64,000 nucleotides of DNA from Patescibacteria group bacterium (GCA_041659905.1 JBAZXK010000002.1:30723-94722); one strand, 5' to 3'. Counted from the first letter of the stretch, positions 14,993-57,901 are shown. Notes: a model not told the origin generated them from the sequence alone. Program-made: numbers and translations.

Positions 14993-15275
14993 TGGCTCCG
15001 GGGGAGGGATTCGAACCCACGACCAATTGATTACACAAATCCATAATTTTCATTATGGCGTGGACTATATCTTTACCATGCCTCATTTGGAGAGGTTTAG
15101 GCATCTCGGTATCTAGTCTCTACGGCGCCCTCAATTTTAAATTGAGGTTCCCACGGTGTTAACATATCTCACGACTTAGTCTTCACCGTTATCCCAAGAT
15201 GTTCACTTTGGCGTTTCCACCAAAGGCTGCGTTTTATGATCACAGTCAACTGCTCTACCGCTGAGCTACCCCGGA
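14993..15275 (-). tRNA. tRNA-Asn (anticodon GUU) interrupted by a 208-nt group I intron
   Basis: The 5' exon is 15275..15242 (UCCGGGGUAGCUCAGCGGUAGAGCAGUUGACUGU). The 3' exon is 15033..14993 (UAAUCAAUUGGUCGUGGGUUCGAAUCCCUCCCCCGGAGCCA). Joined, they give a 75-nt cloverleaf with anticodon loop CUGUUAA, a U1:A72 pair and a G73 discriminator, as in bacterial tRNA-Asn. Confidence 0.8.
15034..15241 (-). ncRNA. group I self-splicing intron (ORF-less) in tRNA-Asn anticodon loop
   Basis: The 5' exon ends in U, which can pair as U.G with a GCAG guide sequence about 12 nt into the intron. There is a P2 hairpin CUUUGG...CCAAAG. GUAGAGACUAGA and AAGAUAUAGUCC elements are present, and the intron ends in G. 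Confidence 0.75.
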
Positions 15276-15305
15276 TTGTCAAATTACTTACCTATATATT
15301 CTAAC

Positions 15306-16751
15306 CTATTCGAGATAATCCTTTAATTTCTTAGAATCTTTAGATTTTTTGAGTTTCGCGAGGGCTTTGGCTTCGATCTGGCGAATGCGCTCGCGCGTTA
15401 CTCCAAATTCATGCCCGACTTCTTCTAAAGTATGTGCCCACTCCCCGTCTAAGCCAAAGCGCATCTTTAATATTTTCTGTTCCCGCGGGGTAAGTAGATG
15501 CAACACACTACCTATATCTGACTTCAATAAATCTTGGGCGGATTGTTCATCTGGCGTTAAACTATCTTCATCTTTGATAAAATCGCCCAGCAGGCTATCG
15601 TCTTCATCACCGACAGATTTCTCTAACGACACGGTTTCCTGTGAAATTTTAAGGATGTGGTTAACCTTTTCTAATTCAATCCCCATTTCGTTGGCAATTT
15701 CCTCAGGTGAAGGCGGCCGACCCAACTCTTGCACCATCTGCCGCTGAGTGCGTGCCAAGCGATTCATCGTTTCGACCATATGCACCGGAATCCGGATAGT
15801 GCGGGCTTGGTCTGCGATCGCCCGGGTAATGGCCTGTTTAATCCACCAGGTCGCATAAGTAGAGAATTTAAACCCGCGTTTGTAGTCGAATTTATCTACC
15901 GCTTTCATCAAACCGATATTGCCTTCCTGGATTAAATCCAGGAGCGACAATCCCCGGCCGATATATTTCTTAGCAATACTTACAACTAACCGCAAGTTGG
16001 CTTCGGCTAAGGCTTTGGCAGCCATCGTGTCGCCAGCTGCCACCCGTTTAGCTAAAGCCACTTCTTCCGGCTTCTTCAATAAGGCGATCTGCCCAATTTC
16101 CTTCAAATACATCCGCACCGAATCTTCGCCAATCGCTTCGGTGGATTCTTCTTCGCTCAATCCTTTTTTGACCGGTTTTTTACTCTTGCGGACTTTCTTA
16201 GTTTCTACATCCGAAGCTCCGGATTGCCAAATCAGATCCTCGCGCAAATCTACCACTTCTATCCCTAAATCTAAGAAGGATTCGTACAGCTTATCCAGTA
16301 GCTCGATGTTATTTTCGGCATCAGGAACTGCTTGATTTAATTCCTGCTGCGTAACAAAATTTTGGTCTTGCGCTTTCAGTAATAAATATTCGATCTCTGG
16401 CGGAAAATTGTACTTTTTTAGTTTATCCTTAAAACTTTGAACTTCTTCTATCTCGTCTTCCAGTTGTAATTCCGGCTCCTGTTGTTCTACGACTGGAATA
16501 ACTAGTTCTTCGATTTTTTTTATTTTCTTTTTTGGTTTAATTACTGCTTTGACAGGTTTCTTGGCTGCTTTTTTGGCCGCTGGTTTTGCGCGGTGCGGGG
16601 CCTTCACCGCTTTCTTCAATTTATGAGCCGTTTTTTTCACCGGCTTAGTTGCCTTTTTGGCAAATTTAGCCTTCTTTCTTGAAGGCATAGTGGTTTTTCT
16701 CTGCTTAGCTTTTGCCGAAGCAGACTTCTTGGCTGATTGTTTCTTCGCCAT
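15306..16751 (-). CDS. rpoD: RNA polymerase sigma-70 factor (primary sigma)
   Basis: Regions 2-4 are conserved ([63 protein letters not shown]). N-terminus is K-rich. Confidence 0.9.
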
Positions 16752-16766
16752 ATAAAAATAAAATAA

Positions 16767-18503
16767 TTAAAATTGTCGGTTGAATTCCTCTAAAAATTCT
16801 TGCAACTTAACTGCATCACCCATCTGCTCGGCTACAATAATCTGGCGATTGAGTTCTGCCAGGGTCAGTTTGGTTTGGCGTTGCTTCAGTAGATTAATGT
16901 AAAATTTCAACTCTTGTTCCACATCCTTCTCTGGCATATCGGCATAATACTCCTCTGTCGTCATGAGAGTTTCTAGGAGATCCACCTTTTCCTGATAGTC
17001 CAGTTTGGCCAGCAGACCGTCAAGAGAAAATTCTCTCCCAGTATAGCAATTTTTTAGTTCCGCGTAAACTTTTTCTGTAAAAGGGTGGGGCCATTTCAGA
17101 TTATTCAGCTCACTCTGGACTTTTTCCCAATAATTTGGCCTAAAAGTTAGTATGCCCAAAATCCGCTTTTCCAGCCAATCCGTTCTGTCTGCCGGCTTAA
17201 TTTCTCCTTTAGGCAAGCCGATCTTATTCGGCTTACGCTTAACTTCTAGATTTTTCAACGCCTCGTACAAATTGGTTTGACTGATACCTAACGTTTCGGA
17301 AAGTTTTTTGACATACTGATCTTTTTCGACCGGACTGCCTAATAAATTGATCGCTGGCAGCACTTCGGCGACAACTTTCTTTTTATCGTTAACGGAAGTA
17401 GTGCCATATTTTTTAGTAGCATAACTGATATAAAAATCAACGATCGGGATCGCTGCCGCGACGGTCGCTCGCCATTTGGCCGGATCAGCTTTAGCACATT
17501 CATCCGGATCTTTGAATCCTTCTAAAACAGCTATTTTGATTTCTAAATCCTTTGCCGAAGCCAATTCAATTACCCGCTTGGTGGCTTCACTGCCCGCTCC
17601 ATCGGCGTCTAAGGCTAAAATCAAAGTTTCGGCGTGTCGGCGCAAAATATCCAGTTGCTCGAGAGTAAGTGCCGTGCCCGATGAGGCTACTACATTGGTC
17701 ACGCCAGCTTGGTACGAAGATAGGGCATCCATTTGTCCTTCCACTAATACAACTGTTTTCTTTTCTTGGATACTTTCTTTAGTCACTGACAGGCCATATA
17801 AAATTCTGCCTTTGTTAAATATGGGGGTTTCGGGTGAATTTAGATATTTAGGCTGATCGTTATTATCCAAAACCCGGCCAGTAAACCCCACCACTCTCCC
17901 ACCAACATCTGTGATGGGGAACATCAAGCGATGACGAAATTTATCGTATTGTTTACCGTTGCGATTGACGATCAGTCCAGCTTTTTCAATTTCTTCCGGG
18001 GTGAATTCTTTGCGCCGTAAAAATTTAAACAAGAAATCCCAGCCAGCAGGGGCATAACCTAACCGAAATTTGGTAATAGTTTCCGGGGCCACCCCGCGAT
18101 TAATCAAGTAATTCATTGCTTGCCGCCCCGCCACCGTATCTGCCATATATTTCTCAAAAAACTTAGCCGATAGCTCGTTGATAGCGAGCAACTTGCTTTT
18201 GACCCCCCAATCCCGCGGTCGGGTTTTTAATTCTACTCCGGCACGCTCGGCGAGCTCTCCTAAAGCTTCTGTGAATTCTAACCCCTCCTTTTTCATCAAG
18301 AACCCAAAGATGTCGCCGCCCGCCCCACAACCAAAACAGTGCCAGATCTGCTTATCTGGGCTCACGATCAGCGAGGGGTCTTTGTCCCCATGGAATGGGC
18401 AAACCGTCCGGAAGTTGCGTCCGGCTTTTTTCAGGGGTAGATACTGCCCAATAAACTCGACAATATCTACTTTGGCTTTGATTTCGTCCAGCTGGTCCAT
18501 CAC
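16767..18503 (-). CDS. dnaG: DNA primase
   Basis: CHC2 zinc finger (CPFHGDKDPSLIV...WHCFGCGAGGD) and a TOPRIM domain. It is adjacent to rpoD as in the macromolecular-synthesis operon. Confidence 0.9.
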   Translation of the reverse strand: MMDQLDEIKAKVDIVEFIGQYLPLKKAGRNFRTVCPFHGDKDPSLIVSPDKQIWHCFGCGAGGDIFGFLMKKEGLEFTEALGELAERAGVELKTRPRDWGVKSKLLAINELSAKFFEKYMADTVAGRQAMNYLINRGVAPETITKFRLGYAPAGWDFLFKFLRRKEFTPEEIEKAGLIVNRNGKQYDKFRHRLMFPITDVGGRVVGFTGRVLDNNDQPKYLNSPETPIFNKGRILYGLSVTKESIQEKKTVVLVEGQMDALSSYQAGVTNVVASSGTALTLEQLDILRRHAETLILALDADGAGSEATKRVIELASAKDLEIKIAVLEGFKDPDECAKADPAKWRATVAAAIPIVDFYISYATKKYGTTSVNDKKKVVAEVLPAINLLGSPVEKDQYVKKLSETLGISQTNLYEALKNLEVKRKPNKIGLPKGEIKPADRTDWLEKRILGILTFRPNYWEKVQSELNNLKWPHPFTEKVYAELKNCYTGREFSLDGLLAKLDYQEKVDLLETLMTTEEYYADMPEKDVEQELKFYINLLKQRQTKLTLAELNRQIIVAEQMGDAVKLQEFLEEFNRQF

Positions 18504-56792: not shown

Positions 56793-56868
56793 TGGCGCGC
56801 CCGAGAGGATTTGAACCCCTGGCCTTTCGGTCCGTAGCCGAACGCTCTATCCCCTGAGCTACGGGCGC
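56793..56868 (-). tRNA. tRNA-Arg (anticodon ACG)
   Basis: Cloverleaf with anticodon loop CUACGGA and encoded CCA. Confidence 0.85.
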
Positions 56869-56883
56869 ATGATATTTTCTGAA

Positions 56884-57366
56884 TTATATTTTGAGAATAC
56901 GACCCAGTTTATCTACAAAATTATCCTTATTAGTATCCGATTCCGGTAACATCTTACTGAGAGCTATCCGCAACCTGTCTTGATAATCTGCCGGTATAGT
57001 CAGGGAGATAGGCGGAAGCATGCGAGAGGTTGATAGCAAGTTTAAGTATAGCTTACCCTCGGCTTGATGAAACCAAAACAACTTTAATTGATCATAAGTA
57101 AATTTGCGCTCATTAATGGTTAGCCCGGCTGCATCTATCCGACATTTTAGCAGCTTGGGTTTCGCTCGATCTACTATAAAAATGGCTACCAACAAAATAA
57201 TTACTGTCACTCCGAACAACCATTGTTTGGCATAAATGGCATAAGCTAAGATAAATACCGCTAAAACAATAGCTATTACATACCAGCGCCAGTCTTTTTT
57301 ATACGGCACAAATTCTGTTGATTCCCATTCGATGGGCATAAAACTACCTAGTATTTGTTCATTCAT
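56884..57366 (-). CDS. hypothetical membrane protein
   Basis: 160 aa with 2 TM helices, then a soluble domain. Confidence 0.5.
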   Translation of the reverse strand: MNEQILGSFMPIEWESTEFVPYKKDWRWYVIAIVLAVFILAYAIYAKQWLFGVTVIILLVAIFIVDRAKPKLLKCRIDAAGLTINERKFTYDQLKLFWFHQAEGKLYLNLLSTSRMLPPISLTIPADYQDRLRIALSKMLPESDTNKDNFVDKLGRILKI

Positions 57367-57396
57367 AAATTTAAGTTAACCACTGTTTCATTATAC

Positions 57397-57486
57397 TGGC
57401 GGAGGCGACAGGGTTCGAACCTGTGAGAGGCTCTCGCCTCAACTAGTTTTCAAGACTAGCGCCATAAACCACTCGGCCACACCTCC
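57397..57486 (-). tRNA. tRNA-Ser (anticodon UGA)
   Basis: Long variable arm, anticodon loop CUUGAAA, G73 discriminator, encoded CCA. Confidence 0.85.
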
Positions 57487-57489
57487 CTA

Positions 57490-57792
57490 CTACAGATTAA
57501 TCAAAGAATATCTAATTATTTGTTTTAGTGACGATTTACCTTTATCTGTCTTAAAGTATCTTTCACGTCTTATGGCATCTCTCTTATCTTTGAAAGCTTC
57601 ATAAAATATAAGTTTAAACGGTCGGCGATCTTTTGTTGATCTCACTAAACCCTTTTGGTGTTCCTGAAACCGTTTCTGCAAATCAGTAGAATAACCAATA
57701 TACAATTTATTATCTTTCTGGCTTTTTAATACGTATGTGTAATACATAAAATTACAGGCGTCCATAAACCACTCGGGTTTATGGCTCGCCAT
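57490..57792 (-). CDS. GIY-YIG nuclease domain protein (UPF0213/YhbQ-like)
   Basis: YYTYVL...KLYIGYSTDLQKRFQEH GIY-YIG core. 100 aa. Wedged 3 nt after one tRNA-Ser and 17 nt before another. Confidence 0.75.
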   Translation of the reverse strand: MASHKPEWFMDACNFMYYTYVLKSQKDNKLYIGYSTDLQKRFQEHQKGLVRSTKDRRPFKLIFYEAFKDKRDAIRRERYFKTDKGKSSLKQIIRYSLINL

Positions 57793-57808
57793 GCACCCTA
57801 GCGGTGCA

Positions 57809-57901
57809 TGGCGGTGAGGGAGGGATTCGAACCCTCGCGGGGGATTTCTCCCCCCTACCGGTTTAGCAAACCAGCCCCTTCAGCCTCTTGGGTACCTCAC
57901 C
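57809..57901 (-). tRNA. tRNA-Ser (anticodon GCU)
   Basis: Long D-loop and variable arm, anticodon loop UUGCUAA, G73 discriminator, encoded CCA. Confidence 0.85.

Follow-up and report, generated by a model that had tools for sequence, protein, structure and literature searches.

The four classical settings in which introns had been described in bacterial tRNA genes were extended to 21 by Williams in 2020 (bioRxiv 10.1101/2020.01.27.920355), and it is to that work that Nakagawa et al. credit the class “Asn.4Ug”, in which a tRNA-Asn gene is interrupted between positions 35 and 36 and which is sometimes miscalled “Thr.2Ug” (10.1101/2020.01.27.920355; PMC13011429). In a set of 95 complete Patescibacteria genomes, Nakagawa et al. 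counted 15 tRNA-Asn(GUU) genes with an intron at 35/36 (mSystems 2026, PMC13011429), and they report that insertions at 35/36 are enriched in Patescibacteria, that the members of the class range in size from 184 to 894 nt and for the most part contain no ORF, that HNH endonuclease genes are present in four of the Asn introns, and that in complete Patescibacteria genomes the interrupted tRNA gene is often the sole copy (PMC13011429). One Asn and one Asp intron at 35/36 (those of GCA_016700035.1 and GCA_001029755.1, respectively) were found to undergo precise, GTP-dependent self-splicing in vitro, with a change of omega-G to C blocking the ligation of the exons (PMC13011429). According to the survey, almost all introns at 35/36 fall into subgroup IA, and no Patescibacteria tRNA intron belongs to subgroup IC (PMC13011429).

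The locus described in the present work lies in a 64-kb stretch of DNA, which was analysed over its whole length and which is referred to here as the window. The initial annotation of this DNA had presented a tRNA-Asn gene interrupted at 35/36 as a setting that was not yet known. That setting had already been described in 2020 and again in 2026, and it is abundant; the premise of novelty fails because Asn.4Ug had been catalogued in 2020 and self-splicing of Patescibacteria introns had been demonstrated in vitro in 2026. The intron in the window is one more member of a family which is already known, has been validated experimentally and is abundant. In the reading which we consider very probable, a bacterium of the Patescibacteria/CPR type has here a tRNA-Asn(GUU) gene which is functional, situated just 3' of dnaG-rpoD and interrupted between U35 and U36 by an ORF-less group I ribozyme of 208 nt. 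The features of the locus are collected in Table 1.

Table 1. Coordinates of the interrupted tRNA-Asn gene, of the structural elements of its intron and of the neighbouring protein-coding genes, counted from the first base of the window.
Feature	Position	Strand	Basis and remarks
dnaG primase	18503..16767	minus	Pfam DnaG domains; synteny
rpoD (sigma-70)	16751..15306	minus	Pfam Sigma70 r1-r4
tRNA-Asn 5' exon, tRNA positions 1-35, 34 nt	15275..15242	minus	sequence; 3' end GUUGACUGU
Group I intron, 208 nt, ORF-less	15241..15034	minus	Rfam RF00028; reads GAUCAU...UUUGUG
P1 stem-loop	15245..15227	minus	exon C32-U35 and G+1 (15245..15241) pair with guide CGCAG (15231..15227); cmscan
P2 hairpin, 8 bp, GAAA tetraloop L2 (15217..15214)	15225..15206	minus	compensatory changes in 8/8 pairs; MFE
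P3 5' strand	15201..15194	minus	pairs with 15109..15102; both-side changes in 5/8 pairs; MFE
P4 (15189..15184 with 15158..15153) around P5/P5a (15180..15162)	15189..15153	minus	alignment A1
P6/P6a hairpin	15152..15124	minus	alignment A1 and MFE fold
J6/7 (GUA) and P7 5' strand GAGACUA	15123..15114	minus	AGACUA matches the Rfam consensus
P3 3' strand	15109..15102	minus	alignment covariation
P8 hairpin, receptor-type motif CCUAAA...CAUGG	15101..15076	minus	alignment A1 and MFE fold
J8/7 (UAAAGAUA) and P7 3' strand UAGUCC	15075..15062	minus	exact match to the Rfam consensus AAGAUAUAGUC
P9 hairpin of 7 bp with GAAA loop L9 (15051..15048), and 3' tail AUUUGUG to omega-G	15058..15034	minus	
tRNA-Asn 3' exon, tRNA positions 36-76	15033..14993	minus	starts UAAUCAAU, ends GGAGCCA

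The coordinates of the two tRNA halves which the initial annotation had placed on the minus strand, 208 nt apart, proved exact to the base. The 5' exon, which reads in full UCCGGGGUAGCUCAGCGGUAGAGCAGUUGACUGU (15275..15242, minus strand), ends in C32, U33, G34 and U35, the last of which, at 15242, occupies position -1 relative to the 5' splice site, while the 3' exon, which reads in full UAAUCAAUUGGUCGUGGGUUCGAAUCCCUCCCCCGGAGCCA (15033..14993, minus strand), opens with U36, A37 and A38 and contains A72 at 14997, the discriminator base G73 at 14996 and an encoded CCA at 14995..14993. When the two exons are joined in silico they form a cloverleaf of 75 nt which ARAGORN calls as tRNA-Asn(gtt), and the spliced tRNA has, as had been claimed for the joined halves, the loop CUGUUAA (anticodon GUU), the pair U1:A72 and G73, together with the encoded CCA. 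The insertion separates anticodon position 35 from position 36 in a tRNA with G34-U35, as it does in the 35/36 class of Patescibacteria, whose hosts are tRNA-Asn, tRNA-Asp and tRNA-Tyr.

An Rfam search with RF00028 (Intron_gpI) had been proposed as a check on the assignment of the insert to the group I introns. When the whole window was scanned with Rfam at the gathering threshold, the insert was the only group I match across the 64 kb; the match, at 15251..15041 on the minus strand, is significant (68.8 bits, E 2.3e-15), lies above the gathering score of RF00028, which is 50, and extends untruncated over positions 1-253 of the model, that is, over its full length. The individual group I hallmarks that had been listed are likewise each present in the insert: the U·G with the GCAG guide, the P2 hairpin with its GAAA loop, GUAGAGACUAGA, AAGAUAUAGUCC and the terminal G, a base which is found in 44/44 of the collected Asn introns. 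The first base of the intron is G15241 and the terminal omega-G is G15034, no ORF of at least 40 aa is contained in the insert, and the minimum free energy (MFE) of the insert alone corresponds to z = -4.07 relative to dinucleotide shuffles. As judged from its sequence, the gene is a tRNA-Asn(GUU) gene split at 35/36 by a group I intron which is compact and contains no ORF.

The secondary structure was evaluated by mapping a P1-P9 model derived from the window onto a MAFFT alignment of 32 sequences (alignment A1), which comprises positions 15034..15247 of the window and 31 loci. For the structure as a whole, 91.0% of the cells in the alignment are paired, compared to 34-43% after displacement of the 3' partners by 1-3 columns; changes on both sides of a pair are seen in 262 cells, compared to 80.6 ± 9.0 in shuffles, of which 0/500 reach 262; and the covariation score is 0.412, compared to 0.151 in shuffles. 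The RNAfold MFE structure of the intron alone recovers P2, P3, P4, P5/5a, P6/6a, the distal part of P8, and P9. At the level of the individual elements, P4 is paired in 100% of the cells of A1, including a swap of A-U to U-A, one pair in P5 is CG in 15 sequences and GC in 15, compensatory changes are seen in 6/7 pairs of P9, and pairs within P4, P5 and P8 show such changes as well; taken together, the compensatory covariation is strong for P1-P6, P8 and P9. The two strands of P7 (GAGACUA/UAGUCC, with a bulged A) pair perfectly, and their columns are invariant in A1; this invariance carries no covariation signal, because these bases were fixed by the pattern used in the search for homologues. 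Within P7, the pair G15118-C15063 would be the guanosine-binding pair, with A15119 bulged, in an assignment which presumably carries over from the Tetrahymena and Azoarcus introns. Inspection by eye revealed no canonical P10, that is, no pairing of the guide with the 3' exon, and the latter is probably aligned by the anticodon stem instead.

There are two candidate junctions, one after U35 and one after U33, at which the intron would be preceded by a U and would end in a G. With the junction at 33/34 the gene would be a tRNA-Thr(UGU), in which exon 1 ends in ...GACU at 15244, the intron runs from 15243 to 15036 (...UUUG) and exon 2 starts with UGUAAUC; this is the solution that ARAGORN itself reports when it is applied with the -i option to the unspliced sequence (tRNA-Thr(tgt) i(33,208)), and it offers not only the preceding U and the intron-end G but also a valid cloverleaf. 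It nevertheless deserves practically no credence, and this tRNA-Thr(UGU), whose junction is displaced by 2 nt, was rejected on three grounds: the position of the U·G in P1, the identity of the tRNA body, and the intact homologues. In the cmscan alignment U15244 faces an A in P1, and the U·G wobble is found instead two bases downstream, at U15242·G15230; a U·G at the splice site is kept in 31/32 of the homologous ORF-less Asn introns of A1, and the neighbouring +1 pair, formed by intron position +1 and the base 5' of GCAG, covaries among the 32 introns (GC in 8, AU in 6, CG in 6). The combination of U1:A72 with G73 is typical for bacterial tRNA-Asn and atypical for tRNA-Thr, so the tRNA body bears the signature of Asn and speaks against Thr; U is also the first base in 32/32 of the loci called Thr(tgt) by ARAGORN among the matches listed from the homologue scan described below. 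The intact syntenic homologues in relatives are tRNA-Asn genes with the loop CUGUUAA, and when that of the metagenome contig L124 is compared with the product of splicing at 35/36, 64/72 positions are identical and the loop CUGUUAA is the same. The substitution of Thr 33/34 for Asn 35/36 is, furthermore, a documented miscall of ARAGORN/tFind, in which the sequenced products of in-vitro splicing showed 35/36 (PMC13011429).

The consensus of the 11-nt GAAA receptor is CCUAAG...UAUGG, and the motifs in P5 and P8 of the window intron are variants of it, the receptor-type motif of P5/P5a being ACUAAG...UAUGU, together with a GUGA loop. In A1 the CUAA motif of P8 is exclusive to sequences in which L2 is GAAA (15/15, versus 0/9 when L2 is another GNAA loop; Fisher p = 0.001, kinship ignored), and the CUAA motif of P5 is exclusive to those in which L9 is GAAA (17/17 versus 0/6; p = 0.006, with kinship again ignored). 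The sequence suggests L2-P8 and L9-P5 clamps like those of the Azoarcus intron, and we infer tertiary contacts of this kind for the window intron.

The tRNA gene is separated from the stop codon of rpoD by only 30 nt (15276..15305, up to tRNA position 1), and the order dnaG-rpoD-tRNA-Asn recurs, by tblastn, in more than 20 CPR loci among the matches listed. A consensus scan, of a type which is doubtful for CPR promoters, yielded no promoter or terminator around the gene beyond shuffle expectation, and upstream of the tRNA it gave no promoter-like site on the minus strand; co-transcription of the tRNA-Asn with dnaG-rpoD is possible. The best identity of RpoD is 58% to a named Parcubacteria MAG among the matches listed and 76% to a metagenome contig (L122). 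The family of the intron, the gene order and the similarity of RpoD strongly suggest a host within Patescibacteria/CPR that differs from each of the named genomes compared. Elsewhere in the window, genes for tRNA-Arg(ACG), tRNA-Ser(UGA) and tRNA-Ser(GCU), all of them uninterrupted, are clustered within 1.1 kb (56793..57901, minus strand).

In the metagenome relatives L122-L125, whose RpoD proteins are 72-76% identical to that of the window, the state of the same tRNA-Asn site differs by contig. L122 (Ga0209727_1006991; RpoD 76%) has exons which are 100% identical to those of the window and an intron of 218 nt which is 91% identical; relative to the window intron, a U-A pair in P2 is replaced by C-G and an A-U pair in P9 by G·U, and the tips of P6a and P8 are replaced, that of P6a by a different hairpin on a P6 base which is kept. 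The differences between the two introns are compensatory, as is characteristic of sequences whose structure is under selection. In L123 the intron measures 569 nt, belongs to another subfamily and contains an ORF of 115 aa, which gives no Pfam match at E <= 0.01 and which may be HNH-like, to judge by a CxxC...HH...CxxCH motif and by analogy to the PF01844 finding of Nakagawa et al. (PMC13011429). In L124 and L125 (RpoD 72-74%) an uninterrupted tRNA-Asn(GUU) gene lies downstream of rpoD. The site is thus empty, occupied by a short intron or occupied by a long one, depending on the contig, and is therefore evolutionarily dynamic. The Logan contig SRR18595301_811069 (6.6 kb), one of two on record with the exact RpoD, stops 60 nt past rpoD; that the assembly breaks off immediately short of the split tRNA may be due to chance or to differences between strains at the site of the intron.

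The intact tRNA-Asn genes of close relatives such as L124 and L125 also have a bearing on the possibility that the locus in the window is a decaying pseudogene which does not splice, the tRNA-Asn being supplied by an intact gene elsewhere in a genome of which 64 kb are visible. This possibility appears very improbable in view of the state of the gene: its core elements all match the consensus over the full Rfam model, its exons give a perfect cloverleaf, and the exons of L122 have remained identical at an RpoD identity of only 76%, while the intron has changed in a compensatory manner. In addition, default ARAGORN and the Rfam tRNA model, which between them see six other tRNAs in the 64-kb window, find no second tRNA-Asn there, so that the earlier statement that this is the sole tRNA-Asn gene of the region, from which it had been concluded that splicing would be essential, holds within the window only; among the complete Patescibacteria genomes surveyed in the literature, a split gene is often the only copy (PMC13011429). 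A functional, interrupted gene remains the preferred reading.

The distribution of related introns was surveyed by an exact-pattern scan of the GTDB species representatives with two core motifs of this subfamily, which matched at least 120 stretches. The matches listed lie nearly all in MAGs named CPR/Patescibacteria, and among them 99 loci have a split-tRNA call by ARAGORN and 21 do not; in nearly all of the 99 parsed loci among the matches listed, the intron follows CUGU (C32-U33-G34-U35) at 35/36. The hosts among the matches listed include at least 43 tRNA-Asn and, by raw ARAGORN calls with no recount, roughly 31 Asp and 20 Tyr; several of the Tyr hosts are miscalled Ser by ARAGORN, and no tRNA-His host was identified among the matches listed. 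The occurrence of Asn, Asp and Tyr hosts fits a GCAG guide which recognizes any anticodon loop with G34-U35. No locus among the matches listed exceeds 80% identity. In comparisons with the sequences in Table S3 of Nakagawa et al. (PMC13011429), three of the 35/36 introns proved to be relatives from the same subfamily: the window intron is 74.2% identical to the Asn intron of GCA_030583765.1 (Paceibacteria, 205 nt), 78.7% identical to the Tyr intron of GCA_016699995.1 and 78.6% identical to the Asp intron of GCA_023898525.1.

Two further observations were made in the course of this survey. Ten of the listed loci (L019, L036, L046, L062, L086, L087, L108, L110, L114 and L121) have Asn introns of 500-560 nt, in which the P1 loop is enlarged, the additional sequence being situated after the 5' splice site and before the GCAG guide; by analogy, these are presumably the versions with an HNH homing endonuclease that were reported by Nakagawa et al. 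(PMC13011429). Some record titles, moreover, name organisms outside the CPR, namely “uncultured Gammaproteobacteria” (L008, L041, L046, L072, L077), “Bdellovibrionales” (L093, L097), “Bdellovibrio sp.” (L031), “Bacteroidetes” (L056) and “Ignavibacteriota” (L096). Several of the contigs with non-CPR titles bear the CPR-type dnaG-rpoD-tRNA-Asn(intron) arrangement; it is likely that such titles belong to mislabelled or contaminated MAGs, and less likely that they represent a true occurrence outside Patescibacteria.

The mechanism that would follow the course established for group I introns can be outlined for this gene as follows. In the folded precursor, exon bases C32-U35 would pair with the internal guide CGCAG to form P1, with U35 held in the U·G wobble, and an external guanosine bound in P7 would attack after U35. 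G15034 would next occupy the guanosine site, the freed 3'-OH of U35 would attack after G15034, and the ligation of U35 to U36 would restore the loop CUGUUAA. Throughout, the P3-P9 core would be braced by GAAA-tetraloop/receptor contacts between L2 and P8 and between L9 and P5, as in the Azoarcus intron. That the copy in the window does splice itself is expected by analogy with its relatives. Many group I introns require chaperones or maturases in vivo, and splicing could in principle depend on a host protein or some other cofactor, so that the intron would not act autonomously in vivo or in vitro. We regard such a dependence as unlikely: related Asn and Asp introns at 35/36 self-splice in vitro with GTP alone (PMC13011429), and the window intron itself contains no ORF and has a complete, compact core with two predicted tetraloop-receptor braces, in which it resembles the ribozyme of Azoarcus, known for its high degree of autonomy. 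It is similarly doubtful that splicing serves as a regulatory gate, as opposed to the intron being a passive parasite, but if the tRNA-Asn gene is the sole copy, GTP-dependent splicing could tie the supply of tRNA-Asn to the GTP level and to the expression of the primase and the sigma factor. A comparable regulatory idea has been raised in general terms by Nakagawa et al. (PMC13011429).

The locus has little bearing on basic biology, as earlier publications already cover the class, the site of insertion and the capacity for self-splicing. It does have value for annotation, since tRNA finders either miss the gene (default ARAGORN, the Rfam tRNA model) or mislabel it as tRNA-Thr(UGU), with the consequence that the genome seems to have no tRNA-Asn and is scored as less complete. 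The relatives in which the site is empty, occupied by a short intron or occupied by the 569-nt intron provide material for the study of intron gain and loss in reduced genomes.

Several known systems can be set beside the window intron. The tRNA-Leu(UAA) intron of cyanobacteria and plastids (IC3) is, like it, a group I intron in an anticodon loop, has an omega-G and a U·G pair where the 5' exon ends, and is usually ORF-less; it differs in its position at 34/35, in its greater length, which is 249 nt in Nostoc PCC 7120, and in its peripheral elements, and is about 66% identical. The likeness in size and in GUAGAGACUAGA to the tRNA-Ile(CAU) intron of Azoarcus sp. BH72 (IC3), to which the initial annotation had drawn attention, is real, and it extends to the GAAA loops and the receptor motifs. 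The Azoarcus intron is about 205 nt long and has the exact GUAGAGACUAGA; as in the window intron, P2 and P9 are capped by GAAA, 11-nt receptor motifs of the CCUAAG/UAUGG type are present in P5 and P8, P2.1, P5abc, P7.1/7.2 and P9.1 are absent, and the insertion lies in the anticodon loop of a tRNA. The two introns differ in host, position and guide, the Azoarcus intron being inserted after position 36 of tRNA-Ile(CAU) with the guide GUG and the window intron after position 35 of tRNA-Asn(GUU) with the guide GCAG, and the P3 strand sequences and J3/4 of the Azoarcus intron are unlike those of the window. Their global identity, calculated with eight N positions of the Azoarcus sequence (PMC8890501) filled in, is only about 66%, which is no higher than the identity to the Nostoc tRNA-Leu intron.

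By its anatomy, in which P7.1/7.2 are lacking, the window intron looks IC3-like. If its subfamily were an Azoarcus-like, IC3-type minimal ribozyme, a reading to which we give little weight, this would contradict the published statement that there are no IC introns in Patescibacteria tRNAs, and the GCAG guide would then let a single lineage hop among the tRNAs with a CUGU loop (Asn, Asp, Tyr). No sequence among those published or compared is identical to the window intron, the best being the metagenome contig L122 at 91%, and the Asn and Asp introns whose splicing has been demonstrated in vitro come from different sequence subfamilies, only about 65% identical to it. With the Patescibacterial Asn 35/36 class as a whole, the window intron shares the same host, the same site, the context CUGU|...G|UAA, the miscall as Thr(UGU) at 33/34, and a length within the size range of the class.
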